Below, piece by piece: positions 3 to 25,065 of a stretch of 48,541 nt of DNA (positions within the stretch are counted from its first letter, which is position 1; every line of letters starts with the position of its first letter). A model generated the notes under the pieces. The model ran no database searches. It saw only the letters and a list, made by a program, of their open reading frames with translations, and was not told the DNA's origin. Made by a program: the position numbers and the translations under genes. This DNA comes from an uncultured beta proteobacterium (GTDB taxonomy: Bacteria > Pseudomonadota > Gammaproteobacteria > Burkholderiales > Burkholderiaceae_C): assembly GCA_903954045.1 (NCBI GenBank), contig CAJBMJ010000292.1, positions 1-48,541 on the forward strand, given 5' to 3'.

Positions 3-3000
3 AAATTGGGTTTCCTTGCTCATGCTAGATACCAGTTTGGCATACCGCTCGGTGTTGGCGTCATCCAAAGGCGCATCCACTTCGTCCAGCAAGCAAAACG
101 GGGCCGGGTTGAGCTGGAAAATGGCAAACACCAAAGCGATGGCAGTAAGCGCCTTTTCACCGCCAGAAAGCAAGTGGATGGTCTGGTTCTTTTTGCCAGG
201 TGGCTGAGCAATCACCTGTACCCCGGAATCCAGAATTTCGTCGCCGGTAATCACCAGGCGGGCGTTGCCACCGCCAAACAGCTCCGGGAACATGCGACCA
301 AAGTGCAGATTGACCTGCTCGAAGGTGCCTGAAAGCAGCTCGCGCGTTTCGGCATCGATCTTGCGGATGGCATCTTCCAGGGTATTCATGGCCTGCGTCA
401 GGTCCACATTCTGGGCGTCCAGGAAGGTTTTGCGCTCGCGGGCAGCACCCAGTTCGTCCAGTGCAGCCAGATTGACCGCTCCCAAAGCTGCAATTTCGCG
501 GTGAAGGCGGTCAATATCGCCCTGCATGCCAAACAGACGCACATTGCCTTGCTGGATGCTTTGCTCAATGGCTGCCAGATCGGCCTTGGCGTCCTGCAAC
601 TGCTGCTCAAACTGTTCAAACCCCAGGCGAGCAGCCTGCTCCTTGAGCTGGAATTCCGTAATGCGCTGGCGCAGTGGCTCCAGTTCGCGCTCCAGTTGCA
701 TGCGTCGCTCGTCACTGGCGCGCAACTTGGCTGTCAGATCATCGTATTCGCTGCGCTTGGCTCCCAGCGATTGCTCACGCTCCATCTTGAGTGCAAGGGC
801 ATTTTGCAAACCGGCTTGTGCTGCGGCGTCGGTCAAACGGGCCAGCTCTTCGAGCGCCCGCTGCTCATCTGCATGAATGGACTGGGTTTGCTGGGCTGCA
901 GTCTCAATGGCCCTGGACAACTCCGCCGTGCGCGCTTGCAAGCTGCGCCGTGCAAACTCTGCCTCCTGTGCCTGGCGCTCCAGGGTTCGCTGCTGCTCGC
1001 GGCATTGCGTCAGCTTGCGCTGCCCATCAATCACCCGCTCTTCCAACTGGGCATGGCGCTCCTGACTGTCGGCCAACTGCATGTCCAGAGACTCGAAGCG
1101 CCCTTCAGCCTCCACCCGCCGCTCCTGCAAGTCGTCGAGCTGGGCAATCACTTCTGCAATATCCGATTCGATCTGGGCACTGCGCGCGCGAGTTTGCTCC
1201 AGCAACTGGGACAGTCGCAGCGTTTCCACCTGCAATTCATGGGCGCGACTCTGGGTTTCTGTGGCTTCCCGTCGCACACCGACCAGTCGCTGGGCGCTTT
1301 CGGCGTAAGTGCTCTCGGCGCGCCCCAAAGCAACACGAGATTCGTCTGCGATCAGCACCTGCGCACGCAATTGCTTTTCCAGATTTTCAATCTCCTGGGC
1401 CCGCTGCAACAACCCTGCCTGTTCGGAGTCCTGCGCATAGAAGCTGACGCTATGACCGGTTACCGCATGGCCGGACTTCACATAAATGCACTCACCGGCT
1501 TGCAACTGGCTGCGTTGGGCTAAGGCCTCTTCAAAGCTGGACGCAGTAAAACAACCGCGCAACCATTCGGACAGTACTGCCTTTTGTCCGGCATCGTTCA
1601 CACGCAGTAGGTCCTCCAACCGGGGCAAGCCAGTTGCACGCTCCTGGGTCGAGACAGAAGGTGGACTAAAGAAAGAAAGTTTGGCTGGCGGGGCATCGTT
1701 GGCAAATGCACGCAGCATGTCGAGTCGGGACACTTCCAGCGCGCCCAGGCGTTCGCGCAATGCGCCTTCGAGTGCGTTTTCCCAGCCCTGCTCAATATGA
1801 ATTCGGCTCCACAAGCCCTGCAGGTGGTCCAGGCCATGCCTGGCCAGCCAGGGTTGCAACTTGCCATCGGTCTTTACTTTTTCCTGCAAGGCTTTCAGAG
1901 CCTCCAGACGGGCAGAAAGATCGGCCTGGCGGGACGATTCGGTGTTGACAGCCTGCTGCTTTTCGCGCCGGGCATCGTCGAGCAGCGGAACCGCATCCTG
2001 CAGCTCGTGCAGGCGGGCATCCGCCACCTGGCTAGCTTCCTGGGCTGCCTCCAACTGTTCTTGCAGGCTGAGCAGTCGCGCCTCGTCGGGGGCGGAAAGT
2101 CCATTGCGGTCGGCGGACAAGCGGTCATGGCGGGTGCTGAGCTGGCGGCTTTGCTCCTCAATATTGCGCTGCTCTGCCGCCAAGACCTGAATTTGCTGCT
2201 GCACCAGCGAAACATCGCCGCGCTGCGCGTTGGCCGAGGCCTGGGCTTTCGCAACAGCCTCTTCCAGATCAGGCAACTGCTGCCCCTGCTCTTCCACCTG
2301 TGCGGCCAGCAATTCGGTTTGCTCGTCGCCCAGCAAGGCCAGCTCAGCCAGGCGCTCAATTTCAGCTTGTGCGTCGTCCCTGCGCACTGCCCATTGGCCC
2401 ACCTGTTCTTTCAGGCTGACCAAACGCTGCTCAACCCGCTGGCGTCCTTCCACTACAAAACGAATCTCTGCCTCCAGCCGTCCGACGTCGGTACTTGCCT
2501 CATAGAGCAGGCCCTGTGCCTGATTGACCTGATCACCCGCCGCGTAATGCGCTTGGCGCACAGTTTCAAGGTCAGCTTCTACATGACGCAGATCGGCCAT
2601 GCGGGCTTCCAAAGCGTTTACCGCTCCAAGGCCTTCGGTCTGTACTTTGCTTTGGTCTGCCAGGGCTTCCGACCGTTTGAGAAACCACTGCTGGTGCTGC
2701 TTGAGCGTGACTTCAGCCTGAAATGCGTTGTATTTCTGGGCCACCTCGGCCTGCTTTTCCAGCTTTTCCAGGTTGGCGTTGAGCTCGCGCAGGATGTCAT
2801 CCACGCGGGTCAGGTTCTCCCGGGTGTCCGACAGGCGATTCTCGGTTTCGCGGCGGCGCTCCTTGTATTTGGAAACACCGGCTGCTTCTTCCAGAAAGAG
2901 CCGAAGTTCTTCGGGCTTGGATTCAATGATCCGGCTGATCGTGCCCTGACCAATGATGGCGTAAGCCCTGGGGCCTAAACCGGTGCCCAGGAAAACATCC

Positions 3001-3383
3001 TGCACATCGCGGCGACGCACTGGCTGGTTGTTGATGAAATAGCTGCTGGTGCCATCACGCGTCAGCACCCGCTTGACAGCAATTTCACCAAATTGTCCCC
3101 ACTGGCCACCCGCACGGTGGTCGGCGTTGTCAAAAACAAGTTCTACGCTGGCCCGGCTGGCCGGTTTGCGCGTGTTGGTGCCATTGAAGATGACATCCTG
3201 CATGGATTCGCCGCGCAGCTCACTGGCGCGGCTTTCTCCCAAAACCCAGCGCACAGCGTCCATGATGTTGGATTTGCCACAACCGTTGGGCCCCACCACG
3301 CCGACCAGTTGGCCGGGGAGCAGGAAGTTGGTGGGTTCAGCGAAGGACTTGAAGCCCGATAACTTGATGGAATTGAGGCGCAC
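3..3383 (-). CDS. smc: Chromosome segregation protein SMC (3' end beyond the left edge of the window)
   Basis: Reverse strand from GTG at 3383 reads MRLNSIKLSGFKSFAEPTNF...VVGPNGCGKSNIMDAVRWVLGE (Walker A), then coiled coil. Near the left edge it reads LLSGGEKALT (signature) and FCLLDEVDAPLD (Walker B). It is absent from the ORF track, consistent with having no stop codon in the window. Confidence 0.96.
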   Translation of the reverse strand, partial: MRLNSIKLSGFKSFAEPTNFLLPGQLVGVVGPNGCGKSNIMDAVRWVLGESRASELRGESMQDVIFNGTNTRKPASRASVELVFDNADHRAGGQWGQFGEIAVKRVLTRDGTSSYFINNQPVRRRDVQDVFLGTGLGPRAYAIIGQGTISRIIESKPEELRLFLEEAAGVSKYKERRRETENRLSDTRENLTRVDDILRELNANLEKLEKQAEVAQKYNAFQAEVTLKQHQQWFLKRSEALADQSKVQTEGLGAVNALEARMADLRHVEADLETVRQAHYAAGDQVNQAQGLLYEASTDVGRLEAEIRFVVEGRQRVEQRLVSLKEQVGQWAVRRDDAQAEIERLAELALLGDEQTELLAAQVEEQGQQLPDLEEAVAKAQASANAQRGDVSLVQQQIQVLAAEQRNIEEQSRQLSTRHDRLSADRNGLSAPDEARLLSLQEQLEAAQEASQVADARLHELQDAVPLLDDARREKQQAVNTESSRQADLSARLEALKALQEKVKTDGKLQPWLARHGLDHLQGLWSRIHIEQGWENALEGALRERLGALEVSRLDMLRAFANDAPPAKLSFFSPPSVSTQERATGLPRLEDLLRVNDAGQKAVLSEWLRGCFTASSFEEALAQRSQLQAGECIYVKSGHAVTGHSVSFYAQDSEQAGLLQRAQEIENLEKQLRAQVLIADESRVALGRAESTYAESAQRLVGVRREATETQSRAHELQVETLRLSQLLEQTRARSAQIESDIAEVIAQLDDLQERRVEAEGRFESLDMQLADSQERHAQLEERVIDGQRKLTQCREQQRTLERQAQEAEFARRSLQARTAELSRAIETAAQQTQSIHADEQRALEELARLTDAAAQAGLQNALALKMEREQSLGAKRSEYDDLTAKLRASDERRMQLERELEPLRQRITEFQLKEQAARLGFEQFEQQLQDAKADLAAIEQSIQQGNVRLFGMQGDIDRLHREIAALGAVNLAALDELGAARERKTFLDAQNVDLTQAMNTLEDAIRKIDAETRELLSGTFEQVNLHFGRMFPELFGGGNARLVITGDEILDSGVQVIAQPPGKKNQTIHLLSGGEKALTAIALVFAIFQLNPAPFCLLDEVDAPLDDANTERYAKLVSSMSKETQF

Positions 3384-7604: not shown

Positions 7605-8761
7605 TGAATGAAACCCTGACCCTGACCGAGCAACTCCTCAAGTTGGAGTCGGTCACCCCCAACGACGGAACGTGCCAGAAACTGATAGCCCAGCGGCTTA
7701 CCGCTTGCGGGTTTACCTGCGAAACGATGGTGAGCGGCCCCACCAGTTTCTCCGTCACCAATTTGTGGGCCCACCGTAAAACCTCGGGCACTGCCAAAAC
7801 CCTGGTGTTTGCTGGCCATACCGACGTGGTACCTACAGGCCCGCTCTCCGAATGGACGACTCCGCCCTTCACCCCCAGCCACCGGGATGGCAAGTTGTAT
7901 GGCCGGGGTGCGAGCGACATGAAAACTTCGCTGGCGGCCTTCGTGGTGGCCATTGAAGAGTTTCTGGCCGCTACACCCTCACCCCAGCTGAACATCGCCT
8001 TGCTGCTCACCAGCGACGAGGAAGGTCCCGGCGTGGATGGCACGGTCATCGTCTGCAATGCGCTCAAGGCACGGGGCGAAGTTCTGGACTACTGCATTGT
8101 GGGTGAGCCCACCTCTGTGCATCGCACCGGCGACATGATCAAGAATGGCCGCCGCGGCACCATGAGCGGTAAATTGACCGTCAAAGGTGTGCAGGGGCAC
8201 ATTGCCTACCCGCATATGGCCAAGAACCCCATTCACTTGGTGGCGCCTGCGCTGGCCGAACTGGTCGGAATTCAGTGGGATTGCGGTAACGACTTCTTTC
8301 CGCCCACCACTTGGCAGATCAGCAACATCCATGGCGGAACAGGTGCCAGCAACGTCATTCCCGGAACCGTGGTTGTGGATTTCAACTTCCGTTTTTCCAC
8401 AGAGTCGACACCCCAATCCCTACAAGCAGGCCTGATTGGCGTGCTCAAAAAGCACGGTCTGGAATATGACCTGGCCTGGACCATTGGCGGCTTGCCCTTC
8501 CTCACCACGCCCGGGACGCTGGTCGATGCTGTGCGCGACGCAATCACTGCAGAAACGGGCTTGACCGCAGAACTTTCAACCACCGGCGGTACCAGCGACG
8601 GACGTTTCATTGCCCAAATTTGCCCCCAGGTCATTGAACTGGGACCACCCAATGCCAGCATCCACAAAATCAACGAGTACGTGAATGTGGCGGATATTGA
8701 GCCTCTCAAGAACATTTACCGGCGAACCCTGGAAATCCTGCACCATCAGGCCAGCGCATGA
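7604..8761 (+). CDS. dapE: Succinyl-diaminopimelate desuccinylase
   Basis: [40 protein letters not shown]. Start overlaps the upstream stop (TGATG). Confidence 0.97.
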
Positions 8762-9663
8762 CCCTGCTGGAATTGATCGAGTCCTGCGCTCAACAGCTCA
8801 CCGACGCCCAGGTCGCTTTTGGTCACGGCACGACCAACGCCTTTGATGAAGCCGCCTGGCTGGTGTTGCACAGCTTGGGGATGCCCCTGGATACGCCGGT
8901 TCGTGGTCAGGATTCTGAAGAAAAAAGACCTGTAACGCCCGCAGAATCAGCGCAAGCAGCTACGCTTTTAGGAGCGCGCATTTCCTCCCGCAAACCCGCT
9001 GCCTACCTCACCCAGGAGGCCTGGCTACAAGGCGTTGCGTTTTTTGTGGACGAGCGGGTGATCGTTCCCAGGTCTTTGATTGCGGAGTTGCTGGCGGACG
9101 GTGGTATTGACTATTGGCTCACTGAATCCACCCGACGGGTACTGGATTTGTGCACCGGCAATGGCAGCCTGGCGGTAATCGCCGCCATGGTGTATCCGGA
9201 CGTAGAGGTAGAAGGAGCCGACATCTCGATAGACGCTTTAGATGTGGCGGCTATCAACGTGGCAAAACACCAGCTCGGTGAACGTATTGCCCTGATGCAC
9301 TCAGATGGTCTGGGTAACGTGCGTGAACCGTACGATCTGATTTTGTGCAACCCGCCGTATGTCAACGCCCAAAGCATGTCTAAGCTGCCTGCCGAATACC
9401 TTGCAGAGCCCGCCATTGCGCTGGACGGTAACCAGAGCGGCGGAAAAGACGGCATGGATTTCATCCGCAAGCTGCTGCGCGATGCCCCGCTGCACATGAA
9501 CGCCAATGGGGTATTGGTACTGGAAATTGGCAACGAACGCACCCATTTTGAAGCTGCCTTTCCTTCGCTGGAAGTGGTCTGGCTGGAAACCAGTGCCGGG
9601 GAGGACCAGGTGTTGCTGGTTGTGCGTGAGGCTCTGTTAACGCTTTTGCATGCGCCGAAGTGA
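8758..9663 (+). CDS. prmB: 50S ribosomal protein L3 N(5)-glutamine methyltransferase
   Basis: [37 protein letters not shown] overlap with dapE. Confidence 0.95.
8927..8975 (+). repeat. Intragenic ~49-bp repeat, copy 1 (inside prmB, encodes [17 protein letters not shown])
   Basis: GACCTGTAACGCCCGCAGAATCAGCGCAAGCAGCTACGCTTTTAGGAGC. Ungapped 37/49 identity to copy 2 and 31/49 to copy 3 (counted by hand). Confidence 0.8.
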
Positions 9664-9901
9664 GATGGGCTGGATGAGTGACTTCGTTCGTGTCCCCCGC
9701 CCTTCGGGCTCCTCCTTTACCTCACTGCGCCACTCACCCAGCCCACCTCACTTCTCCGAGGGACGACTTACGCTGTTTTTCTGCAAGTGCACCACCAACC
9801 GCCGCAAGGCGGGAGGCTGGGGTACTGCGAAGCGCAGGTAAAGGATGATCCCGCACAGCGGGCGGGGGACACGGAGCTTCGCAGTACCCCAGCCTCCCGC
9901 C
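9657..9901. repeat. Composite REP/REPIN- or MITE-like element: two long hairpins with inverted shared cores
   Basis: 26-bp inverted repeat 9657-9682/9729-9754 (3 mismatches) and perfect 26-bp inverted repeat 9808-9833/9876-9901. The loops share CGTGTCCCCCGCCC...TCCTTTACCT in opposite orientations. Confidence 0.8.
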
Positions 9902-9941
9902 CCCCACTACCGACCGAACTGATTAACAAGCTATAGAACAA

Positions 9942-11897
9942 ATGATTACCCTGAAAAACGTCACCCTACGCCGCAGCGCTAAGGTACTCCTGGAAGGCGC
10001 TTCCGTCACCCTCAACCCCGGCGAAAAGATCGGTTTGGTCGGGCGCAATGGGGCTGGTAAATCGTCGTTGTTTGCACTGCTCAACGGCAACCTGCACGAA
10101 GACGCTGGGGAATACTACATTCCGGCCCAGTGGCGCATGGGCCAGGTCGCGCAGGACATGCCCGAGACGGACCAAAGCGCTACCGACTTTGTGGTGGAAG
10201 GAGACACGGCCCTGAACGCGGCGCGCGAAGAAGTCACTGCTGCTGAGGCTACCGACGATTACGACCGCATGGCCCATGCCTATATGGCATTGCACGATGC
10301 TGGCGAGCACGACGCCCCGGCCCGGGCGCAAGCCTTGATATTGGGTCTGGGCTTCAAGACCAGTGAGCTCGAGAACCCGGTCAACAGTTTCTCAGGCGGC
10401 TGGCGCATGCGATTGCAACTGGCCCGCGCATTAATGTGCCCCAGCGACCTGCTGCTGCTTGACGAACCCACCAACCATCTGGACTTGGATGCCCTGGTGT
10501 GGCTGGAAGCGTGGCTCAAGAAATACGAAGGCACCATGGTGGTGATCAGCCATGACCGGGAGTTTCTGGATGCGGTCACCAATGTCACCCTGCACATCGA
10601 CGCGGGCAAGTTGGTGCGCTACGGCGGTAACTACAGCAAGTTTGAGGACATGCGCGCCGAGCAGATGGAGTTGCAGCAGAACGCCTATTCCAAGCAGCAG
10701 GACAAGATTGCCCACCTGCAAAAGTTCATCGCCCGCTTCAAGGCCAAGGCCAGCAAGGCCAAACAGGCCCAAAGCCGAGTGAAGGCGCTGGACCGCATGG
10801 AAAAGATTGCGCCGCTGCTCTCCGAGGCGGACTTCAGCTTCGAGTTCAAGGAACCTGCCAATCTGCCCAACCCCATGCTATCTATGAGTGGCGTGAGCTT
10901 TGGCTACCCGCCGCCAGAAGACGCAGTGGCTGGTACACCGCCCACGGTGATCGTTCAGAACGTCAACAAATCGGTTTTGGCGGGCCAACGCATCGGCATT
11001 CTGGGTGCCAACGGACAGGGTAAGTCCACCTTGGTAAAGACAGTCGCTCGCGCCCTACAGCCTCTGGGTGGTGAAGTAACCGAGGGCAAGGGCCTGAACA
11101 TTGGCTACTTTGCCCAGCAGGAGCTGGACGTGCTGCGCCCGGCAGATACGCCTTTGGAGCACATGATCCGGCTGGTCAAAGAGCTCACGGCGGCCGGAAA
11201 GATTGCGGGGCAGGCAACGCGCGAGCAGGATCTGCGCAGCTTTTTAGGCACTTTCAATTTCAGCGGCGACATGGTCAAGCAGGCCGTGGGCAGCATGAGC
11301 GGCGGCGAAAAAGCCCGACTGGTGCTGTGCATGATCGTCTGGCAGCGCCCCAACCTGCTGCTGCTCGACGAGCCCACCAACCATCTGGACCTCGCCACCC
11401 GCGAGGCACTGTCCATGGCGCTCAACGAATTTGAAGGTACCGTGATGCTGGTGAGCCACGACCGAGCGCTGTTGCGAGCCGTGTGTGATGAGTTCTGGAT
11501 GGTGTCGCGCGGTGGCGTGGAGCCGTTTGATGGTGACCTGGATGATTACCAGCGCTACCTGCTGGATGAAGCCAAGCGCCAGCGTGAACTGGCCAAAGCC
11601 AGCACCAAGGCTGAAACGCCAGTGGCCGAGAAGAAACCGGCAGTTGCAGCAGCCGCTGGCGTGCAAAAAACAGGGGCAGCGCCAGAGCTGGTTCGCAAAT
11701 GGAAAAAGGAATTGGGGCAGGTCGAAACACGCTTGAAGGCCCTGAATGACGAAGGCGCGGTACTGGAAGGAAAACTCTCCACAAACCCGCACCCTTCCGA
11801 AATTGCAGAGGCGTGCAAGCGGCTTAAGGCGGTCAACGAAGAACTCAAGACACTGGAAGACCAGTGGCTGGAATTGACCACGCTGCTGGAGGTCTGA
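9942..11897 (+). CDS. ABC-F family ATPase (YheS-like)
   Basis: Two ABC domains (GRNGAGKSS/FSGGW/LLLDEPTNHLD and GANGQGKST/MSGGE/LLLDEPTNHLD), KASKAKQAQSR linker, C-terminal coiled coil, no membrane domain. Confidence 0.95.
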   Translation: MITLKNVTLRRSAKVLLEGASVTLNPGEKIGLVGRNGAGKSSLFALLNGNLHEDAGEYYIPAQWRMGQVAQDMPETDQSATDFVVEGDTALNAAREEVTAAEATDDYDRMAHAYMALHDAGEHDAPARAQALILGLGFKTSELENPVNSFSGGWRMRLQLARALMCPSDLLLLDEPTNHLDLDALVWLEAWLKKYEGTMVVISHDREFLDAVTNVTLHIDAGKLVRYGGNYSKFEDMRAEQMELQQNAYSKQQDKIAHLQKFIARFKAKASKAKQAQSRVKALDRMEKIAPLLSEADFSFEFKEPANLPNPMLSMSGVSFGYPPPEDAVAGTPPTVIVQNVNKSVLAGQRIGILGANGQGKSTLVKTVARALQPLGGEVTEGKGLNIGYFAQQELDVLRPADTPLEHMIRLVKELTAAGKIAGQATREQDLRSFLGTFNFSGDMVKQAVGSMSGGEKARLVLCMIVWQRPNLLLLDEPTNHLDLATREALSMALNEFEGTVMLVSHDRALLRAVCDEFWMVSRGGVEPFDGDLDDYQRYLLDEAKRQRELAKASTKAETPVAEKKPAVAAAAGVQKTGAAPELVRKWKKELGQVETRLKALNDEGAVLEGKLSTNPHPSEIAEACKRLKAVNEELKTLEDQWLELTTLLEV

Positions 11898-11900
11898 ACC

Positions 11901-12467
11901 ATGACTGCTGCTTCGGGCCCTATCGTTGAAGCTGTGTTGTCGGCGGTGTCCCGCATACCCGACACCAGTCAGCACAGAGAGGTTTCGCCCCTGTTGGCGG
12001 CGCAGGCGCTCACCAGAGCGGCGGCAACCAAAGCCGCGCTGACCTCGGGGTCGCTGGCACTGGCACCGGGGCCCATTGGCCTGTTGACGCTGCTGCCCGA
12101 CCTGATTGCCGTCTGGAAAATTCAGTCCCAACTGGTATCGGACATTGCTGCGGTGTACGGACGAAAGGCTGAGCTCACCCGCGAACACATGCTGTACTGC
12201 CTTTTCAAACACACGGCAAGCCAGGCTCTGCGGGACCTGATGGTGCGTGCGGGGGAGCGCTATGTGTTCAAACGCGCCTCCCTGGCTGCACTGGAAAAGA
12301 TTGCAAAGAAGATCGGCCTGGTTACCACCAAAAAGCTGATGGGTTCAGCAGGTTCCCGTTTTCTGCCCTTGGTTGGAGCGGTCGGGGTTGGTGCTTATGC
12401 GTATTACGACACGGTCAAAGTAGCCGCCACAGCGATCGCGCTGTTTGAAAAAGACCTCAGTCCCTGA
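11901..12467 (+). CDS. Hypothetical protein, EcsC-like
   Basis: 188-aa ORF; LLPDLIAVWKIQ..IAAVYG and RFLPLVGAVGVG resemble EcsC-family segments. Confidence 0.6.
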   Translation: MTAASGPIVEAVLSAVSRIPDTSQHREVSPLLAAQALTRAAATKAALTSGSLALAPGPIGLLTLLPDLIAVWKIQSQLVSDIAAVYGRKAELTREHMLYCLFKHTASQALRDLMVRAGERYVFKRASLAALEKIAKKIGLVTTKKLMGSAGSRFLPLVGAVGVGAYAYYDTVKVAATAIALFEKDLSP

Positions 12468-12489
12468 GTAATCCAGTCGGGATTCAATT

Positions 12490-12533
12490 TCCCCCAAACG
12501 GGGGATAGCACTTTTTTCTGCGCGTCCTACACT
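12490..12533 (+). promoter_or_regulatory. Palindromic operator (TCCCCC-AAAC-GGGGGA) plus TACACT -10-like box upstream of a small ORF
   Basis: Perfect 6-4-6 palindrome at 12490-12505 and TACACT at 12528-12533. Confidence 0.45.
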
Positions 12534-12563
12534 GACATTTCCAAATACAAACAGGGAGTGATC

Positions 12564-12839
12564 ATGGGTATGGCAGCATTTGACTCGGGCGGATGGCGCA
12601 AGATTTGTCAGCGCACAGCTGTGCAGTGTGACAACAGTGCTATGACGCCCATGCATTACACGTTTTTGTACGGGCAACAGATTGATGACGCCCTGGGAGC
12701 CATTGAATCTCAGTTTGCGTTCGAGGCCATTGAAGTTGCGCGCGAATTTGGCTACGACACACCCACCGAACGGCATGAGTTGCGCACCTGGGTTACGCAG
12801 AGGGCACGGGAAGCTGCTACCGCCGTCGGTTGCAGATGA
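12564..12839 (+). CDS. Small hypothetical protein (91 aa)
   Basis: AGGGAG ribosome-binding site before ATG 12564; fills the gap between neighbouring genes and converges on the DUF4149 gene. Confidence 0.6.
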   Translation: MGMAAFDSGGWRKICQRTAVQCDNSAMTPMHYTFLYGQQIDDALGAIESQFAFEAIEVAREFGYDTPTERHELRTWVTQRAREAATAVGCR

Positions 12840-12844
12840 AAGTT

Positions 12845-13273
12845 CTATTCCTGTGAGGCTCGGCCGGACGCTGAACCGGCCAGCTTTCCGAATACCACCA
12901 GTGCGCAGGCCCACTGCGCAAAGTACATGGCGCTTCCCACGCGGTGCCACAACGCCAAGTTGTCGCGCGCCACAATTCTGGGAGCCACCGCAATCTCAAC
13001 CAACAAAGCCAACAGCAGCCCGGACACTACAAAAAGTGTAGCTGCTTGTGCAGTAAGGGCGGGCGTTAGAGGTCGATTCGACCTGAAGGCGGCCAGCAGG
13101 CCCACGGCGCACACGGCCGAAATACCAGTTTGCACGCCAAATAACTTGGCTGCCATGGTTCCGGCCATGGCTGGGGTCGACAAGTGGACAAACAACATGG
13201 GCACCACAAACAAACCCAAGGTGCTAAGGCTGCCCACCCAGACAGCCGCCAACCACAGGGGCAAGGTGCGCAT
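12845..13273 (-). CDS. DUF4149-like small membrane protein
   Basis: Four hydrophobic helices, FVVPMLF..L..PAMAGTMAAKLF, WHRVGS; lies downstream of greA. Confidence 0.75.
   Translation of the reverse strand: MRTLPLWLAAVWVGSLSTLGLFVVPMLFVHLSTPAMAGTMAAKLFGVQTGISAVCAVGLLAAFRSNRPLTPALTAQAATLFVVSGLLLALLVEIAVAPRIVARDNLALWHRVGSAMYFAQWACALVVFGKLAGSASGRASQE
13026..13074 (-). repeat. Intragenic ~49-bp repeat, copy 2 (inside the DUF4149 gene, encodes RPLTPALTAQAATLFVV)
   Basis: Minus strand GACCTCTAACGCCCGCCCTTACTGCACAAGCAGCTACACTTTTTGTAGT, colinear with copies 1 and 3. Confidence 0.8.
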
Positions 13274-13284
13274 GAAAGGATCTG

Positions 13285-13761
13285 TTAAATGTAGGAGACG
13301 GCAACCACCTCATAGGCTCGCTCGCCGCCCGGGGCCAGCACCACGGCTGTGTCACCTGCTTCTTTGCCAATGAGCGCGCGCGCAATAGGTGAGCTGATAT
13401 TGATCAGTCCCTGCTTGAGATCGGCTTCATCTTCGCCCACGATCTGGTACTTGACCAGGTCGCCGGATTCTTCGTCCTCCAGTTCCACGGTGGAGCCAAA
13501 CACCACCCTGCCCTCTGCTTGAATGGACGACGGGTCGATGACCTGGGCAATGGACAGCTTGCCTTCGATTTCCTGGATTCGCCCTTCAATAAAGCCCTGG
13601 CGCTCTTTAGCGGCATCGTAGTCTGCGTTCTCGCTCAAATCGCCTTGGGCACGCGCCTCTGCAATCGCCTGGATAACCGACGGACGCTCGACTGTCTTGA
13701 GCTTGTGCAGTTCGGCCTTGAGCATTTCAGCGCCGCGTTTGGTAATAGGAAAAGTTGCCAT
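13285..13761 (-). CDS. greA: Transcription elongation factor GreA
   Basis: [17 protein letters not shown] and [12 protein letters not shown]. Confidence 0.98.
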
Positions 13762-13794
13762 GGTCTCTATTGGTTTTTGGAGAGCTGAAAGTAC

Positions 13795-13830
13795 AAGGAC
13801 AGTGCTGCACTTGCGCGCAGCACTGTCCTT
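13795..13830 (-). terminator. Strong hairpin between carB and greA (terminator/attenuator or RNA-stabilising stem)
   Basis: Perfect 14-bp stem AAGGACAGTGCTGC/GCAGCACTGTCCTT with an 8-nt loop; only a weak U-tract (TTGTACTTT) on the transcribed strand. Confidence 0.55.
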
Positions 13831-13855
13831 CGTTGCAGGGAGCGATTATGCCAAG

Positions 13856-17110
<3,255 letters not shown>

Positions 17111-17162
17111 TTAGAAACTCGTGCTTTTAAGGCTCTTTACTATTCAATGAATTCAGACTTGT

Positions 17163-17831
17163 TCAGTTCAGGCTCGCAGTGGCCAGCTTGGCCCCAAACC
17201 ACATAAACAGACCGCCCACAGCGCTCGACAGACTGGCCGACAGACGCTTGCGCCGGCTAAATCCTTGCGCCAGCCGGGCTCCCGCAAAAATCAGGGCGGA
17301 CAAATAGACGGCACTCAAGCCCATGATGATGCTTCCCAGAATCAGGAAGGGAACGGCGGGCGTAGCGTAGGCGGGGTCAATGAACTGCACAAAGAACGAC
17401 AGCAAAAACAAAATCGCCTTCGGGTTCAAAAGACTGATGACGAGCGCGCGCTTGAACGGTTGCTGCATATGGGTAACCATTTGCGAAACTGCGGCATCCG
17501 TGTCCGGCTCAACCGTTTTGGACGAGCGCCACTTGGCGATCGCGCCGCGAACCAGGTTGATGCCTACCCACGTCAGGTAGGCAGCCCCCACATACTTCAC
17601 CACCATGAACAGCGCAGGGTAAGTACGCAGCAGGCCAGCGGCACCCAAGGCAGTGAGTGTCAGCAAAATGGTGTCCCCTACAAACACGCCAAACGCGCCT
17701 TGGTAGCCAGCGCGCACACCGCGCGAGGTCGCTACCGACAGCACGTACAGCGAGTTCGGACCGGGCAGCAAAATAATGCCGATCGCACCGATCAGGTAAG
17801 TCCAGATGTCAGTGACGCCGTAAAAGCTCAT
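17163..17831 (-). CDS. leuE: Leucine efflux protein, LysE/RhtB family
   Basis: [30 protein letters not shown]; multiple membrane helices. Confidence 0.85.
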
Positions 17832-18994
17832 GCACGCTTTTCCATCAATCCTATGAAGCGGTCGAACAGGTAACCGATGTCATGCGGGCCTGGCGAGGCT
17901 TCCGGGTGTCCCTGGAAGCAGAACGCGGGCTTGTCGGTGCGCTCCAACCCTTGCAGCGTGTTGTCAAACAGGCTGATGTGCGTGGGGCGCAAGTTGGCTG
18001 GCAAGGTACGCTCGTCCACCGCAAAGCCATGGTTCTGGCTGGTGATGGACACACGGCCGCTGTCGAGATCTTTCACCGGGTGGTTGGCACCATGGTGGCC
18101 GAACTTCATCTTGAAGGTCTTGGCGCCCGAGGCAAGAGCCATGATCTGGTGGCCCAGGCAAATACCGAAGGTTGGAATGCCGGTTTCAATCAGTTCCTTG
18201 GCCGCCGCAATGGCATAGTCACATGGCTGGGGATCGCCAGGGCCATTGGAAAGGAAAATGCCACTGGGCTCGTACCTGAGCACCTCAGAGGCAGGGGTTT
18301 GCGCTGGCACTACAGTGACCTTGCAGCCACGCTCGGCCAGCATACGCAGGATGTTCTTCTTGACCCCAAAGTCGTAAGCCACGACATGGAACCTGGGTTC
18401 GGTTTGTGCGCCGTAGCCCTCGCCCAAAGTCCACTCAGACTCGGTCCAGCCATAGCTGCTGGCACTCGTCACCACTTTGGCCAAGTCCAATCCGGACATA
18501 CTGGGTGCACATTTGGCGGCGGCTACGGCCTTTTCGATAGCTTCTTTGGTAACTGCTTCACCAGCGGCCAGCGCCAGAATGCAGCCGTTTTGCGCGCCTT
18601 GGGTGCGCAGTTGGCGGGTCAACTGGCGGGTGTCAATATTGGCAATAGCTACCGTTCCTTCGGTCACCAGATACTGTGACAGCGTCTGTGTGGAGCGAAA
18701 GTTGGAGGCCAGCAGTGGCAAATCCTTAATGATCAGACCCGCTGCCTGGACCTTGTCCGACTCGACGTCTTCCGGGTTGATGCCGTAGCTGCCAATATGA
18801 GGGTAGGTCAACGTGACGATCTGCTGGCAATAACTGGGATCGGTGAGGATCTCCTGGTAGCCGGTCATGGACGTGTTGAACACGACTTCGCCGACGGTGG
18901 AGCCAATGGCTCCAATGGAATTGCCAATGTAGACCGTGCCGTCTGCGAGCGCCAGAATGGCGGGTGGGGTAGTTCCCTTAAGAGACAAAAGCAC
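17828..18994 (-). CDS. carA: Carbamoyl-phosphate synthase small subunit
   Basis: [50 protein letters not shown] 18994 follows GGAGA. Confidence 0.98.
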
Positions 18995-19123
18995 TGGTTT
19001 CTCCGAATGGGTTACGGTTACGCCCAAACGCGCTCAAGAATCGCTCTTGGCGGATGCTTCTGTGAGGGGAGATTGCTTGAAATACGCTTGGGACAGCTGT
19101 TTTCTGGAAAGCCTCCCATTATA
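18995..19123 (-). promoter_or_regulatory. carA promoter (-10 TATAAT) and long structured 5' leader
   Basis: TATAAT on the minus strand at 19118-19123, about 120 nt before the start codon, with nested stems between. Confidence 0.5.
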
Positions 19124-19132
19124 GCCGAGGAC

Positions 19133-22100
19133 CTAAGCTTTAACCTCCCCCTCGACTTCGCCAGGGACCACTGTTTGCCAGGCGTTTTCGGGCTTCCAGA
19201 TCGCAACCCAATTTGGAATTTGCTCCCCAGGCATGGGCCTGGCAATGCCATACCCCTGTGCCAAATAGCAGCCCAATTGCAGCAGGGCCAGGCCATGGGC
19301 ATTGGTTTCCACGCCCTCTGCAATCACGTTGCGCCTGAAAGCAGCCGCCAGCCCCACGATGCCCTTGAGAATGGCCAAATCGTCAGCGTCGTCGAGCATG
19401 TCCCGCACAAAACTTTGGTCAATTTTGAGCGTCTTCACCGGCAAACGTTTAAGGTAAGTCAGTGAGGAATATCCAGTACCAAAATCATCCAGTGCAAAGT
19501 GGACCCCCATGGATGCGCACTGGGCAATGACACTGGAGATACCAGATATGTCCTCCAACGCACTGGTTTCAAGCACTTCCAGTTCCAGCATGTGCGGTGA
19601 AACGTCTGCAAACTGACCCAGCAACTCAGCCAGGCGCTGCACAAACTCCGGCTGCTGGAGTTGCATCGCTCCCATATTGACGCTCACTGGCATCTCGAGC
19701 CCGACGGTTTTCCACTGACGAATCTGCTGCAAGGCGGATCGAATAACCCACTCACCAACGTCCACGGAAAGTGGATGATTTTCCAGATCCGGCAAAAACG
19801 CGGAGGGCGGCAATAAACCGCGCTGAGGATGCTGCCAACGAATCAAGGCCTCGACGCCTATCACAAGCCCTGTGTACATATTGACTTTGGGCTGGTAGTG
19901 GAGCTCAAACTCCTGGTCGATCAGCGCCTGTTGCAGGCGTTCGATGTTCTCATGATGCCCACGCACACTGCGGTCGTGCTCGGCATCAAACACGTGATAA
20001 CGGTTCTTTCCAGAGACTTTGGCCTGGTACATGGCCTGATCGGCCTGTCGCTGCAATTGGTCTGCGTCTATGGAATCTGCTTGGGGGTAGAAAGTAACCC
20101 CCAGACTGGCCGAAACCTGCACCACCTGCCCGTCCAGATTGAATGGCTGTGACGTGGCCGAAAGCAGCCGCTTGAGCAGGGGGACGCAAGATGACACATC
20201 CGGCAAGTCTGCCAATACTGCGACGAACTCGTCTCCGCCAATGCGCGCCAGGGTATCGCCCTCACGCAGGGTGGCCTTCATGTGCCTGGCTGCACCGGCA
20301 AGGACCTGATCACCTGCATCGTGCCCCAGTGTGTCATTGATATGTTTGAAGCCATCCAGGTCCAGGTACACCACGGCAAGTAGCTGATTGCGTCTCTGCA
20401 CCGTAAGCATGGCCTGTTGCAGACGGTCGGCAAGCAACACACGATTGGGCAGACCGGTGAGCGGGTCGAAGTGGGCCATGCGCTCCATCTCCTGCTGGTG
20501 CTCTTTCTGCGCAGTGATATCCGAAAACAAGGACACGTAATGCCGTGGTTCACCACGCTCATTTCGTACCAGACTGACCGTCTGAAGCTCTGCATACAGC
20601 TGGCCGTCCTTGCGCCGATTCCAGATCTCACCCACCCAGTGGCCCTGCTCCCGCACGTCTTTCCACATATCGGTGTAAAAGTCCAGGGAATGGCGCCCAG
20701 ATTTGAGGATTCGTGGATTGGCGCCAATCACTTCCTCCCTGGAAAATCCGGTAATCCGGCTGAAGGCATCGTTGACTGTAACGATCGTTCCATCGAGCTC
20801 AGTGATCATGATTCCTTCACGGGCGAAGGTGAACACACTGGCTGCCAGCAGGATTTTTTGTTCAGCAGATTTGCGCTCGCTGATGTCGGTCACCACCGAT
20901 ATGAGGTAACCCGCATTGGGGTCGTCTTCCTGCACCACCTGCTCAGCCACGCTGACCCACACCAGCGATTGGTTCGAGCGCACATAAGGTTGCTCAACCG
21001 CATAGTTTTGAAGCTTGGCAGACTGCAGATCCTGAGACCTCTGAAGGTCCCCACCAGTTTTCGGTGGCAGGATTTGGGCCAGGGTTACCTGTCCGGAAAT
21101 CAGCATCTCACGGGAATAACCCAGCAAGTCGCAGTATTGCTGGTTGACTTGCAGGAAACGGCCATCGAGCGACAACTGCGCCATGCCAACCGCTGCGTTT
21201 TCGAAAACCGCCCGGAACAGTGCCTCGCGCTGGGAAAGGGCCTGGTTTTTCTCCTGAAGGTCGGCATGGTACCGGTCGAACAGGCTGGCCAACCAGCGTG
21301 CAAACCAGAGTGAGGCCAAAGAACCGATGGCCAGTGCCAACGCAAGCGCGACGATCCAGCTGCGCCAACTCGATTCGCCCAGGATGGCTTGGTGCACACG
21401 TTCCTGTTGCAACGCCGCACCCATATCATCATCAGCGACGCTGGCCACGACCACCCAACCCCAGGGCTCAAACAAGGTCACCAGCGCCGTTTTTTCCAAC
21501 GCACTGGAAGCATTGGAGGCCCTCCAGAGATACTTCACTTCCCCTCCGCCTGAAAGCGCTTTGGTGTACAAGGCCTCCACGGCTGCGCGTGGTTCAGACG
21601 GCATGTCCTTGAAATGAAGGCCCTCTACCCCTGAATTGGAGGGCGACATGATGGAATGCCCGGTCTTGCCAATGAGGCCGATGGTGCCACTGGCGCCAAA
21701 CCGGATTCCGCGCAAGCGGGCAATGGCCTCCTTTTGCTGTCGCTCCTCCCAGACTTCCACATATTCGCCAGTGCCAATCAGCCAGTCAAATGGCGCGAAA
21801 TGACGCACATAGGCCAGTTTGTCCGACATGACCTTGTTGTTGCCAGGAGAGTACCAGCGGTATTCAGAGAAACCCTCGCCTGGGGGCTTGGTGGCGGCCT
21901 CAATCAGCCCCCGCATGATGAAGTGCCCCCTGTCATCCCGGTTGTCCAGAATGGTTTTGCCTTCCAGTTGCGGCGCAGTGGGCAGCAAAATGAACTGGCC
22001 CTGCATGCTATCGATGAAGAAGTAGCCACGACCGTCAAAAAAGCGCATCGGACGAAGGGCTTCAATGATGAGTTTTTTCACCTCTGCGGGACTACGACGG

Positions 22101-22438
22101 GGCGACTCCCGGTCGTAAATGCTTTGTGCCATCTGCATGACTGCGTCGACTTGCTCGCGCAAACTCTGACGCAGAACCGCATCGGTGCGCTTGCGGGTGA
22201 ATTCAAGATATCCCACCGCCGAATCCAGCTCCGCCTGGAGATGCGACTTCTGCTGATCGACCACCGACTTCTCGAGCCTGGCCAGCGATTCGCGGTGCTC
22301 GATCTGGCTGCGCCAGACAAAAAAAGCACCCAGGACCAGCGTGAGTACCACCACCAGCAGCAAGGTGCCAATCATGTGCAGCCGCGACAAACGGCGGCCG
22401 TCCTGCACTGTGGCGTCAGGGATGGCGAATCTATTCAT
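19133..22438 (-). CDS. Membrane Cache-Cache-PAS-PAS-GGDEF-EAL protein (diguanylate cyclase/phosphodiesterase)
   Basis: Two transmembrane helices flank a Cache region (GRGYFFID..DKLAYVRHFAPFDWLIGTG). Two PAS domains follow, then intact RIGGDEF, EALIRW and DDFGTGYSSL motifs. Confidence 0.93.
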   Translation of the reverse strand: MNRFAIPDATVQDGRRLSRLHMIGTLLLVVVLTLVLGAFFVWRSQIEHRESLARLEKSVVDQQKSHLQAELDSAVGYLEFTRKRTDAVLRQSLREQVDAVMQMAQSIYDRESPRRSPAEVKKLIIEALRPMRFFDGRGYFFIDSMQGQFILLPTAPQLEGKTILDNRDDRGHFIMRGLIEAATKPPGEGFSEYRWYSPGNNKVMSDKLAYVRHFAPFDWLIGTGEYVEVWEERQQKEAIARLRGIRFGASGTIGLIGKTGHSIMSPSNSGVEGLHFKDMPSEPRAAVEALYTKALSGGGEVKYLWRASNASSALEKTALVTLFEPWGWVVVASVADDDMGAALQQERVHQAILGESSWRSWIVALALALAIGSLASLWFARWLASLFDRYHADLQEKNQALSQREALFRAVFENAAVGMAQLSLDGRFLQVNQQYCDLLGYSREMLISGQVTLAQILPPKTGGDLQRSQDLQSAKLQNYAVEQPYVRSNQSLVWVSVAEQVVQEDDPNAGYLISVVTDISERKSAEQKILLAASVFTFAREGIMITELDGTIVTVNDAFSRITGFSREEVIGANPRILKSGRHSLDFYTDMWKDVREQGHWVGEIWNRRKDGQLYAELQTVSLVRNERGEPRHYVSLFSDITAQKEHQQEMERMAHFDPLTGLPNRVLLADRLQQAMLTVQRRNQLLAVVYLDLDGFKHINDTLGHDAGDQVLAGAARHMKATLREGDTLARIGGDEFVAVLADLPDVSSCVPLLKRLLSATSQPFNLDGQVVQVSASLGVTFYPQADSIDADQLQRQADQAMYQAKVSGKNRYHVFDAEHDRSVRGHHENIERLQQALIDQEFELHYQPKVNMYTGLVIGVEALIRWQHPQRGLLPPSAFLPDLENHPLSVDVGEWVIRSALQQIRQWKTVGLEMPVSVNMGAMQLQQPEFVQRLAELLGQFADVSPHMLELEVLETSALEDISGISSVIAQCASMGVHFALDDFGTGYSSLTYLKRLPVKTLKIDQSFVRDMLDDADDLAILKGIVGLAAAFRRNVIAEGVETNAHGLALLQLGCYLAQGYGIARPMPGEQIPNWVAIWKPENAWQTVVPGEVEGEVKA

Positions 22439-22502
22439 TTAAGTGGATTGTTGGGCCATTGGGGTGTTGCTGGCAACAAAAGATTGTTGCCCCCTTCCCT
22501 TC

Positions 22503-23270
22503 TTAAGCCCCAACAGAACTTGCGTGAAGGCAAATGGCCGCGGCCGCAGCCACATTCAGCGACTCTTCGCCTCCCGGCTGGCCAATGCGCGCGAAGAAAT
22601 TCGCCTTGGCCATCAGCTCGGCGCATACGCCTTGCCCTTCGTGCCCCATAGCCCAGGCGCAGGGGTTGGGTAGTTTCAGGTTTTGGAGCAGTTCACCTTG
22701 ATGGGAACTGGTCACCACGACCGGCACCTTCAACGCGTCTAGCACTTCTGGCGACAAACCTTCTATCAAGGTCAGACCAAAGTGCGCACCCATTCCTGCG
22801 CGTAACACCTTGGGACTCCAAAGCGCCGCTGTTCCCTTGAGTGCGACAACTTGGCGAAACCCAAACGCGCCCGCACTGCGCAAAATGGAGCCCACATTTC
22901 CTGCATCCTGCACACGATCAAGAATAACCGTGGCAACGCCCGGCTGAATTGCTGCTTCGGTGGGCAAATCAATCAGAAATCCCACATGGCCGGGGGACTC
23001 CAAACCACTGATTTCACTGAAATAGACACTAGAAATCACTACATTTTTTATAGCTGCCCGCGCATACTCTACGGGCGCTACAGGCCAAAAAGCCTCTGAA
23101 TAAACGGCTACAGCCGGCAACAGACCTCGCTGCAAGGCGGCACTGCACAAATGCTCCCCCTCTACCCAGAATTGCCCCTCTTTCCGGTATGCGGTGTTTT
23201 CGCTACCAAGCCTTCGCAGGACTTTGAGTAGTGCGTTATCGCGCGAAGTCAGGAAGATCGGTTCAACCAT
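22503..23270 (-). CDS. TrmH/SpoU family RNA methyltransferase
   Basis: LDRVQDAGNVGSILRS, MGHEGQG and ESLNVAAA SPOUT motifs. Confidence 0.92.
   Translation of the reverse strand: MVEPIFLTSRDNALLKVLRRLGSENTAYRKEGQFWVEGEHLCSAALQRGLLPAVAVYSEAFWPVAPVEYARAAIKNVVISSVYFSEISGLESPGHVGFLIDLPTEAAIQPGVATVILDRVQDAGNVGSILRSAGAFGFRQVVALKGTAALWSPKVLRAGMGAHFGLTLIEGLSPEVLDALKVPVVVTSSHQGELLQNLKLPNPCAWAMGHEGQGVCAELMAKANFFARIGQPGGEESLNVAAAAAICLHASSVGA
23038..23086 (-). repeat. Intragenic ~49-bp repeat, copy 3 (inside the TrmH gene, encodes WPVAPVEYARAAIKNVV)
   Basis: Minus strand GGCCTGTAGCGCCCGTAGAGTATGCGCGGGCAGCTATAAAAAATGTAGT; 28/36 identity to copy 1 over the first 36 nt, no gaps. Confidence 0.75.
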
Positions 23271-23291: not shown

Positions 23292-23924
23292 TCAAGACAA
23301 CACCTGCGCCACCGGCGCAAAGGTTTTTCGATGCTGGGGGCAGGCGCCATGCTCCCTCAAGGCCGCCAGGTGCGCCGCCGTTCCATATCCTTTGTGCCCT
23401 GCGAAACCGTACTGCGGATAACGCGCATCGAGTTCAGCGCACCAACGATCGCGTGTCACTTTGGCCAAAATCGAGGCCGCGGAGATGGCCGGCACTGTGG
23501 CATCACCCTTGACGATAGCCTCTGCCAGAACGTCGAGAACAGGAAGACAGTTGCCATCTACCAGCACTTTGGCAGGCTTGAGCCGCAAACCCTCCACAGC
23601 CCTGCGCATGGCCAGCATGGTGGCCTGCAGAATGTTGATTTGGTCAATTTCTTCGACACTGGCCTGGGCCACCGAGCAACACAGGGCCTTGGCACGAATT
23701 TCGTCGTAAAGCCTGTCGCGGCGCAATGCGGTCAATTTCTTGGAGTCATTCAGCCCTTGAATCGGGTTGCGGTCGTCAAGAATGACAGCTGCTGCAACCA
23801 CAGGTCCCGCCAATGGCCCCCTGCCCGCCTCATCCACGCCGGCAACCAGGCCCAGGAACTCCCACTCGAAGGCAGCCTGCTGGGCAGACAGTAAATTAGG
23901 TTTGGAGGACTTTTTGGATCGCAT
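23292..23924 (-). CDS. rnhB: Ribonuclease HII
   Basis: [31 protein letters not shown]. Confidence 0.98.
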
Positions 23925-25065
23925 CGGCAGCTATTGTCGCGGTGTCTCGCTGCAACTCCCGGTGCAGGTTCTCAAATTTTTGCGTTAGTGCTTCTAGTTT
24001 CCCGGAGCCATTGGTTCGGGCATCCAGCCAATCCAGTGTTGAGTGGGCCAAAGCCTGCGCTGTGGCGGCATCCTGAATGAATTCGGGCACCACAAAGTCA
24101 GAACACAAAATGTTGGGTAGACCCACCCAGGGCTGCAACTGTTTGCCACGCATCAAACGCCAGGACAACCAGCCCATGTTGTAGGCAATGACCATAGGTC
24201 GCTTGAACAAGGCAGCCTCCAGCGTCGCTGTGCCACTGGCAATCAGGGTCACATCGCATGCGGCAAGTACGGTGTGCGACTGCCCCGCCACGATCTGTAT
24301 CAGGTGCTGCATTCCGCTTTGAATAGCCAATGCCTGCAGTCGCTCTTGCAAACCAGGCGCCGCTGGAACTATGAATTTAATAGCGGCATCTGCAGCATGC
24401 ATATGCGCTGCAGCCTGAAAGAACCGCATCGCCAGATGCTCCACTTCGCCTCGACGACTGCCCGGCAACAACGCTACTACGGTATCGCTTGCGGTCAGGC
24501 CCAATGCCATTCGCGCAGCACCTCGATCGGGCACCATGGGAATCAGGTTGGCTATAGGATGCCCCACGTAGGTGGCCGCGATGCCATGGCTGGCCAGCAA
24601 CTGGGGCTCAAATGGAAAAATGCAAAGCACATGGTCTACGCTTCGGCGTATCTTCTCTACACGCTCGGCGCGCCACGCCCAAATGGAGGGACAGACAAAA
24701 TGTACCGTCTTGATGCCTGCGGCCTTGAGATCAGCCTCCAGGTCCAGATTGAAATCAGGTGCATCCACACCCACAAAGACGTCTGGTCGCTGGTCCAGCA
24801 GTTTTGCACGCAACTGCTTACGAATGCCTACGATCTCGCGGTAGCGCCGCAGCAGTTCCCAACTGAAACCGTGGACAGACAATTTGTGATGCGGCCACCA
24901 TGCCAAGAACCCGTGCTGCGCCATCTGAGGCCCGCCGATACCATGCGAATCAAGATCCGGCCAGCGCTTTTTCATTCCACCCAAAAGCAGGCCTGCGAGC
25001 AGGTCACCCGACGTTTCGCCAGCGACCATGGCAATCCGCGGGGCCACGCTCACGTCTTGGGACAT
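23896..25065 (-). CDS. lpxB: Lipid-A-disaccharide synthase
   Basis: AGETSGD, DAPDFN, PSIWAWR, LLPGSR, SGTATLE. Confidence 0.97.

Follow-up and report, generated by a model that had tools for sequence, protein, structure and literature searches.

A rigid, family-restricted 65-bp DNA motif in the genes of an uncultured Burkholderiales bacterium and its predicted role as a protein-read site

The 48,541-nt contig considered here (CAJBMJ010000292.1, contig C292 of the uncultured beta proteobacterium assembly GCA_903954045.1, which holds 4.4 Mb at 57% GC in 605 contigs; hereafter the window) carries four copies of a DNA motif, each lying in frame within a protein-coding gene. The motif is a real, family-restricted and functionally unexplained DNA signal of 65 bp. 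We consider it very probable (roughly 0.85) that it is a duplex site that is read by a protein and kept by selection or drive. That it is, more narrowly, an uptake-type signal is a prediction by analogy with the uptake signal sequences (USS) of the Pasteurellaceae and the DNA uptake sequences (DUS) of the Neisseriaceae, and one that we hold tentatively, at somewhat less than even odds.

Copy 1 (8913..8977, plus strand, 45.9 bits) lies within the gene for an MTS-type methyltransferase (8758-9663, which we take to be prmB), copy 2 (13024..13088, minus strand, 48.3 bits) within a DUF4149 gene (12845-13273), copy 3 (23036..23100, minus strand, 56.1 bits) within a SpoU methylase gene (22503-23270, presumably trmH) and copy 4 (24366..24430, minus strand, 34.5 bits) within lpxB (23896-25065). 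The initial annotation of this DNA had described the first three as ungapped copies of about 49 bp in genes with no common ancestry. The three 49-mers are where it placed them, their pairwise identities on re-counting are 37, 31 and 30 of 49, the in-frame peptides are as given (one reads PVAPVEYARAAIKNV), and Pfam assigns the hosts to MTS/PrmA-type methyltransferase, DUF4149 and SpoU methylase. The copy in lpxB is an addition to these three, and the 49 bp are the core of the full motif, which extends 14 bases further 5' and 2 bases further 3'. The orientation and frame that the copies share relative to their hosts hold within the window and not genome-wide, where two of the more stop-free frames dominate among genic copies, one sense (114 copies, the frame of the window) and one antisense (94 copies); the shared orientation in the window is a local accident.

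A genome-wide profile scan had been proposed as a means to find further copies. A weight matrix seeded on the three copies first described and iterated on the genome identified 497 sites at a threshold of at least 16 bits, and 0 in the reversed genome. With the first base of the original 49-mer numbered 1, the information spans positions -13 to 51, and the conserved blocks are TT (-13,-12), AAAT (-4 to -1), TAGCSC (7-12), TGCRY (23-27) and the dyad GCTAY-N7-RTAGC (33-49), while eleven positions are nearly free and A/T-rich patches recur along the motif with a period of ~10-11 bp. The dyad is the most conserved block (in copy 1 it occupies 8959..8975 on the plus strand, around an A/T-rich spacer), and its spacing is strict, as GCTAY-Nk-RTAGC occurs 235 times in the genome at k=7 and 3-15 times at each other k from 0 to 15. 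The geometry of the whole is similarly rigid, with the left and right halves of the motif in register (offset 0) in 404 cases and displaced by +-1 in 3. Exact matches are alike on the two strands (55 and 54). The copies are divergent (median nearest-neighbor identity 0.68) and solitary, save for one close pair and four back-to-back doubles (C370:513-622, C85:6838-6947, C325:8786-8895 and C518:3995-4104 of this genome), in each of which a single dyad has the extension on both sides.

The palindrome, which the initial annotation had noted as the end of each copy, does not behave as a paired structure. The arms of the dyad do not covary (pair 37-45 is Watson-Crick in 0.44 of copies observed vs. 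0.48 expected), pairing at all nine dyad pairs is at, within 0.01 of, or below expectation, and the strongest dependencies between positions are between near neighbors. The folding of 60 copies was also unremarkable (mean z -0.58, with 8/60 below -2), and the only Rfam matches in the window are tRNAs. Rigid spacing without covariation leads us to suspect a site that is read as duplex by a protein.

To follow how the genic sites arose, we compared them with G643, a congener that has 0 exact matches and 5 weak matrix matches in the 2.8 of 5.5 Mb sampled, and in which an aligned orthologue was obtained for 111 of the 259 genic sites. Seventy-three of the 111 have a net length difference of zero and 85 differ by no more than two residues; 18 exceed the orthologue by at least 5 residues, 3 by at least 15, and 3 fall short of it by at least 3, whereas in control windows (from the first 1.2-Mb sample) 92% were unchanged and 0.9% were longer by at least 5 residues. 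The sites in the DUF4149 gene, trmH and lpxB have the same length as in the motif-less G643, and the prmB site is colinear with motif-less orthologues across a helix, whose place it takes without indels, its left edge being in a loop of variable length. Local amino-acid identity to G643 is 50% at the sites vs. 80% in control windows, in agreement with the initial proposal of a high-copy family that colonizes coding DNA and rewrites protein segments.

A base-level comparison of 62 ungapped sites (2.0-Mb G643 sample) was more informative as to origin. At the free motif positions in codon positions 1-2, identity to the orthologue is 313/437 (0.72; flanks, 0.82), and it is still 0.64 for the 16 strongest sites, while the same positions agree at only 0.28 with another copy in the same frame. 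Conversely, where conserved motif positions fall at third codon positions, identity to the orthologue drops to 84/390 (0.22 vs. 0.49 in the flanks). Because the free positions match the orthologue and the third positions are forced, each segment descends from its host gene and has been moved to the motif base by base; the genic sites were thus built by substitution, unlike the inserted elements of Rickettsia. Pure substitution is not the whole story, as a minority of sites gained length. The forced third positions also bear out the suggestion that the constraint acts on the nucleic acid and not on the peptide, as does the erasure of the sites by synonymous recoding: only 10-13 of 266 matches survived recoding of all predicted genes, and in the codon-shuffled control that had been called for, 0 of 2000 synonymous recodings scored as high as the actual sequence at any of the four copies in the window.

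The closest relatives of the methyltransferase gene are those named as Rhodoferax, Polaromonas, Acidovorax and other Comamonadaceae, and a link to that family, which the initial annotation had suggested, proved correct in that the motif is a high-copy Comamonadaceae motif. An exact 27-base pattern is present in 58 of 80 congeners (mostly 0-1 or 60-320 times; 22 have no exact match), in 91 of the 300 genomes from the family (with as many as 588 matches) and in 4 of 300 genomes of the order (at most 3 each), and the dyad alone occurs at most 8 times per genome in 200 genomes of the class vs. 171 times here (a tally that includes the unpublished genome G836, on which no conclusion depends by itself). 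Full copies were also found in forty viral stretches, and 8 viral loci gave no Rfam match over the motif. Copies are kept at orthologous codons across Comamonadaceae genera, a statement that rests on four genes for the cross-genus sharing. Of 80 related loci, 33 have the prmB site at the identical codon; among 50 of these 80 loci, it is present in 21/25 genomes with at least five exact matches and in 2/25 with fewer, although the genomes include kin and so are not independent cases. A quick tree was built from the 68 rows in which dapE was also available. On it the prmB site requires 11 changes, of which well-supported branches force 7, and repeated loss, repeated gain and allele exchange are indistinguishable as its history. 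A dapE site recurs in 26 loci but is absent from the window, and 10 of 11 congener loci, with DNA identity of about 72%, again have the trmH and lpxB sites. A second prmB allele on lake metagenome contigs (from two studies, one possibly the source of the window) has 13 changes within 8875-8949 and only 2 more in about 800 flanking bases, such that the 75-bp patch ends inside the motif; the allele keeps the site, its invariant positions being untouched and its score higher by a net 0.8 bit. Additional divergent patches lie at window positions 8985-9119 in other contigs.

Parts of this motif have been reported previously. Tong, Schliekelman and Mrazek (2017) listed spaced pentamer pairs in Rhodoferax ferrireducens T118, Polaromonas naphthalenivorans CJ2 and Acidovorax ebreus TPSY, with the most pairs of all genomes, 140, in R. 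ferrireducens (PMC5217627). The spacings of CTAGC-N22-GCTAT, CAAAT-N33-GCTAT and GCTAT-N8-TAGCA are exactly those of our matrix, and the pairs are the same object in pieces. They were presented as separate "potential novel motifs," and the available text neither assembles a full motif nor assigns a function, analyzes orthologues or indels, or links the pairs to integron cassettes. We found no account of the whole 65-bp motif in a literature search that was mostly blind to subscription papers, and nothing relevant to it in PMC2755013 or PMC3318438.

Based on our own hexamer gene caller, which is approximate (4270 genes, 88% coding), 259 copies are within genes, 74 are over gene ends and 164 are intergenic, and the motif is under-represented in coding DNA, with 259 copies in 3.87 Mb vs. 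238 in the 0.54 Mb outside. Copies avoid each other at short range: pairs less than 400 bp apart number 2 vs. 24.6 simulated, pairs less than 1 kb apart 33 vs. 54.7 (0 of 500 simulations as low) and pairs less than 2 kb apart 74 vs. 91.8, with no difference at 4 kb. Contigs of higher GC carry more copies, the density climbing from 3.8 per 100 kb to 16-25. Genes with no detected orthologue have 15.6 copies per 100,000 residues vs. 32.3 for the others, a comparison based on only half of G643, and genes with an orthologue in that half hold 113 of the 259 sites in 27% of residues, a twofold density. Flanking peptides hint that further copies may lie in ligA, dnaE, polA and mutL.

Growth in core genes at a cost to the protein, in both orientations and with little gain from a second copy within about 1 kb, fits biased uptake plus homologous recombination, the process that gives rise to USS and DUS (PMC2817400, PMC3458573). 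If so, a natural-transformation protein would read the rigid 65-bp site, built into genes by point substitution, as duplex; uptake and recombination would favor motif-bearing DNA, and this preference would spread the site. The anatomy of the motif suggests that a dimeric reader may grip the GCTAY-N7-RTAGC dyad, with more contacts to one side, and that the A/T tracts about every 10-11 bp would bend the DNA. The analogy to the uptake sequences of Neisseria and Haemophilus drawn in the initial annotation fits in these respects, as the motif shares with USS and DUS an origin by mutation and recombination as well as traits listed for them by Findlay and Redfield (PMC2817400), namely both orientations, even spacing, under-representation in coding DNA, frame bias and scarcity in accessory genes, and shares with the USS a layout of helically phased A/T tracts beside G/C cores (PMC3458573). 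Natural transformation is on record within the family, in Acidovorax temperans and A. facilis (PMC4212676).

Several observations weigh against the uptake reading. Its protein reader is not found. In a comparison of 30 motif-rich with 30 motif-poor genomes, comEC was present in 59/60 across both classes (29/30 of the motif-rich; the present genome was not searched), PF16732 (ComP-like) pilins in 58/60, and GspH/FimT pilins in 58/60, and a pilin tail of the GRxR type, which has been linked to DNA binding (PMC8897410), was found in 9/14 motif-rich vs. 8/15 motif-poor genomes. The motif is also unlike the known uptake sequences in form. These are 10-12 bp or 29-32 bp and not palindromic (PMC2817400), while the motif, at twice the length of a USS and with a central dyad, is neither short nor non-palindromic; such a dyad is more typical of a cytoplasmic dimer. 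Its density of 0.11 per kb is about sevenfold lower than the 0.8-0.9 per kb of USS and DUS, and its distribution is patchy within genera. It holds 44 bits of information when 14 bits would be enough to locate 497 sites, and the 18/111 sites with at least 5 extra residues, vs. 0.9% of controls, indicate that some sites gained length. The divergent prmB allele patch is a single case, and the other three window sites show none. Lastly, Verminephrobacter eiseniae, the one relative with reported sequence-biased uptake, has only the unrelated pair GGCAG-N45-CTGCC in the table of Tong and colleagues. The VeiPR1 of V. eiseniae is described as unique to that species (PMC3975124).

The same genomes gave one lead on the reader. 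Two or more PilE-type paralogues are found in 5/30 motif-rich vs. 23/30 motif-poor genomes (3/20 vs. 9/15 within the genus; neither is corrected for kinship), with a single PilE-type gene in 24/30 of the motif-rich and two to four in 23/30 of the motif-poor; the locus in the present genome is at C250:17705-26116. The only PF16732 match in this genome is within an operon of the fimU-pilV-pilW-pilX-pilY1-pilE type, and its FimU/FimT-like pilin ends in GRLR, as do pilins of motif-poor genomes. Genes for DprA, ComM and a ComEA-type HHH_3 domain were found in 5/5 motif-rich genomes, including this one. The dprA gene here itself carries a copy (C182:26334-27497). A synteny subtraction against the sampled 2.8 of 5.5 Mb of G643 left 109 genes missing there, among which inspection by eye revealed no evident dedicated reader.

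An alternative that we consider unlikely is that the reader works inside the cell, in recombination or repair, by protecting or nicking motif-bearing DNA or by loading a recombinase onto it, with drive occurring after entry, in the manner of Chi or of the NTS repeats and SsnA of Neisseria, or that the dyad is a recombinase core with a 7-bp overlap. This would account for the substitution origin and the spacing equally well as uptake; the dyad spacer is fixed at 7 bp, and the divergent allele patch ends inside the prmB copy. Small cargo genes also sit between near-identical direct copies (C174:5916-7505, C456:3318-6400, C420:254-1215 and C251:860-1409), whose identity is 0.74-0.86 vs. 0.52 for random pairs and whose likeness can run into the flanks, and neighbor pairs are 17 direct vs. 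7 inverted. Several of the cargo genes look by eye to be toxin-antitoxin-like, labels that we assume. Genes that adjoin non-genic copies are not smaller overall (fewer than 150 residues in 120/465 vs. 1022/4270). Unlike Chi or the FtsK-orienting polar sequences (KOPS), however, the motif shows no replication polarity, with 249/497 copies on the skew-leading strand compared to 248:92 for the KOPS control, and it does not behave as a polar motif of either type. In G655, whose chromosome is a single contig, the 53 plus and 44 minus matches intermingle all the way from origin to terminus, with no visible ori or ter gradient; the initial annotation had advised a check for position and orientation bias relative to ori/ter. 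Candidate enzymes are similarly elusive: the tyrosine recombinases, two XerC/XerD-like genes excepted, appear to be mobile, with no copy next to any of them, and integron integrase genes occur in 15/30 motif-rich vs. 13/30 motif-poor genomes. The NTS/SRM repeats described by Chenal et al. (2025) are likewise a dispersed motif of hundreds of copies tied to natural transformation, but the SRMs are hairpins, cut in single-stranded form, on either side of a small GIY-YIG nuclease gene (PMC11893778), whereas the present motif has no hairpin signal. No small SsnA-like GIY-YIG gene was found in this genome (the only match is in a 669-residue frame; relatives were not searched), and we do not count the motif among the Ssn/SRM repeats.

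It is also unlikely, in our judgment, that the motif is the site of a chromosome-organizing protein (a nucleoid protein, a LysR-like tetramer, or an SMC or topoisomerase loader), of which selection would keep one every few kb. The even spacing, the phased A/T tracts and the four doubles that share one dyad are consistent with such a role, and the T-N11-A dyad with a one-sided extension of ~45 bp resembles what we take to be a LysR-type footprint. Non-genic copies favor convergent gaps, which hold 44 in 51.8 kb, while divergent gaps hold 20 in 108 kb and tandem gaps 163 in 257 kb. Conversely, G655 shows no ori or ter gradient, many complete relatives do without the motif (22 of 80 congeners having no exact match), and the stepwise construction of 44-bit sites in core genes would be easier under drive than under weak structural selection.

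A third alternative is an old mobile repeat of the repetitive extragenic palindromic (REP), miniature inverted-repeat transposable element or Rickettsia palindromic element type, inserted long ago and then trimmed or domesticated, which is quite improbable and, for the genic sites, largely refuted. Rickettsia palindromic elements are inserted, hairpin-forming copies. In common with these and with the REP/REPIN-RAYT systems, the motif has hundreds of copies, some in frame in genes, and a palindromic part; its high excess information, the 3/111 near full-length insertions and the sites with at least 5 extra residues, and counts that range from 0 to 588 exact matches between relatives could be taken in the same direction. 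It differs in that most copies add no residues (73/111 of no net length, only 3 with at least 15 extra residues), the free positions match the host gene's ancestor, the arms do not covary, and the copies are solitary and divergent. The initial annotation had cited the Rickettsia precedent and advised a search for a co-distributed transposase of the RAYT/TnpA-Y1 type; neither is borne out, as no Y1 transposase gene is flanked by the motif or tracks it (21/30 motif-rich vs. 18/30 motif-poor genomes at E<=1e-8), and the two Y1 genes of this genome have ends of their own and no copy nearby. With hairpin pairing, paired or clustered insertion and Y1 co-occurrence all lacking, we do not place the motif in the REP/REPIN-RAYT or Rickettsia palindromic element families. 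A Y1 gene (L002:694-1497, 236 residues) is bounded by 29-bp inverted repeats of its own, which bear no relation to the motif, and Y1 genes of similar size occur once in many relatives. The main text of Di Nocera (2013) names none of the present genera (PMC3733652).

A plasmid search with copy 3 as the query led to class 1 integrons. All 13 DUF1010-type (gcuD/gcuF) cassettes scanned, in 7 plasmid records, carry one copy of 30-43 bits, always oriented in the array direction; the records were chosen by similarity to one cassette, and 13/13 is thus not a survey. Six such cassettes, each about 319 bp long, follow one another in one class 1 integron of plasmid LC623924.1 (5990-7850), mostly unannotated and with one copy each. 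The annotated DUF1010 frame reads through the motif into attC, and DUF1010 looks like a read-through of motif plus attC and not a protein family. The gcuD/gcuF (orfD/orfF) cassettes have been described as being of unknown function, and gcuF1 has been reported as related to orfD and, most closely, to a cassette from Acidovorax JS42 (Hocquet 2012, PMC3375312). The motif is not itself an integron attC site, since the two are separate within the cassettes and no integron integrase is found in this genome at E<=1e-60; only 1 doubtful match to attC follows any of the 497 genomic copies. A search for the DUF1010 family found nothing in 5 genomes, but its controls were also blank and it is no evidence of absence. 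The cassettes also provide what there is in favor of a promoter, terminator or RNA element, in that all 13 copies read TTG, 19 bases and T(A/C)TnnT in the array direction and one passes a sigma-70 scan, but such an element is highly improbable, given that the cassettes share ancestry and are not 13 independent cases, that the last T of T(A/C)TnnT is in only 22% of genomic copies, that copies show no orientation preference relative to transcription (82 vs. 81 in tandem gaps), that divergent gaps are depleted, that there is no Rfam match, and that gcuF1 lowered the downstream transcript tenfold (PMC3375312).

Elsewhere in the window, the 24 kb of envelope and translation genes at 24430-48541 (lpxA to pheT, including rpsB and tsf) have no copy and form the fifth-longest motif-free stretch in the assembly. 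The gene at the left end (3-3383, minus strand) is smc, cut by the contig end, and plus-strand frames at 501-2978 gave no Pfam match.

To return to uptake, a serious if doubtful possibility is that the motif represents a third, independent and far longer system of self-DNA recognition, in the Comamonadaceae, whose signal would drive itself into core proteins and would have been gained and lost by lineage and captured both as the signal-only gcuD/gcuF cassettes and around small selfish modules, where it would tag foreign DNA as self. To our knowledge, no more than two bacterial families are established cases of sequence-specific DNA uptake. The motif would, if this reading is true, add a third family with an uptake signal, of very different size, in a family that is dominant in freshwater and wastewater. 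DUF1010 and the common gcuD/gcuF cassettes, read at the DNA level, would then carry a Comamonadaceae signature. Whatever its reader, a signal that does not itself code for protein has rewritten about 20 residues in each of some 250 core proteins of a genome, and this rewriting affects phylogenies and selection tests in the Comamonadaceae.

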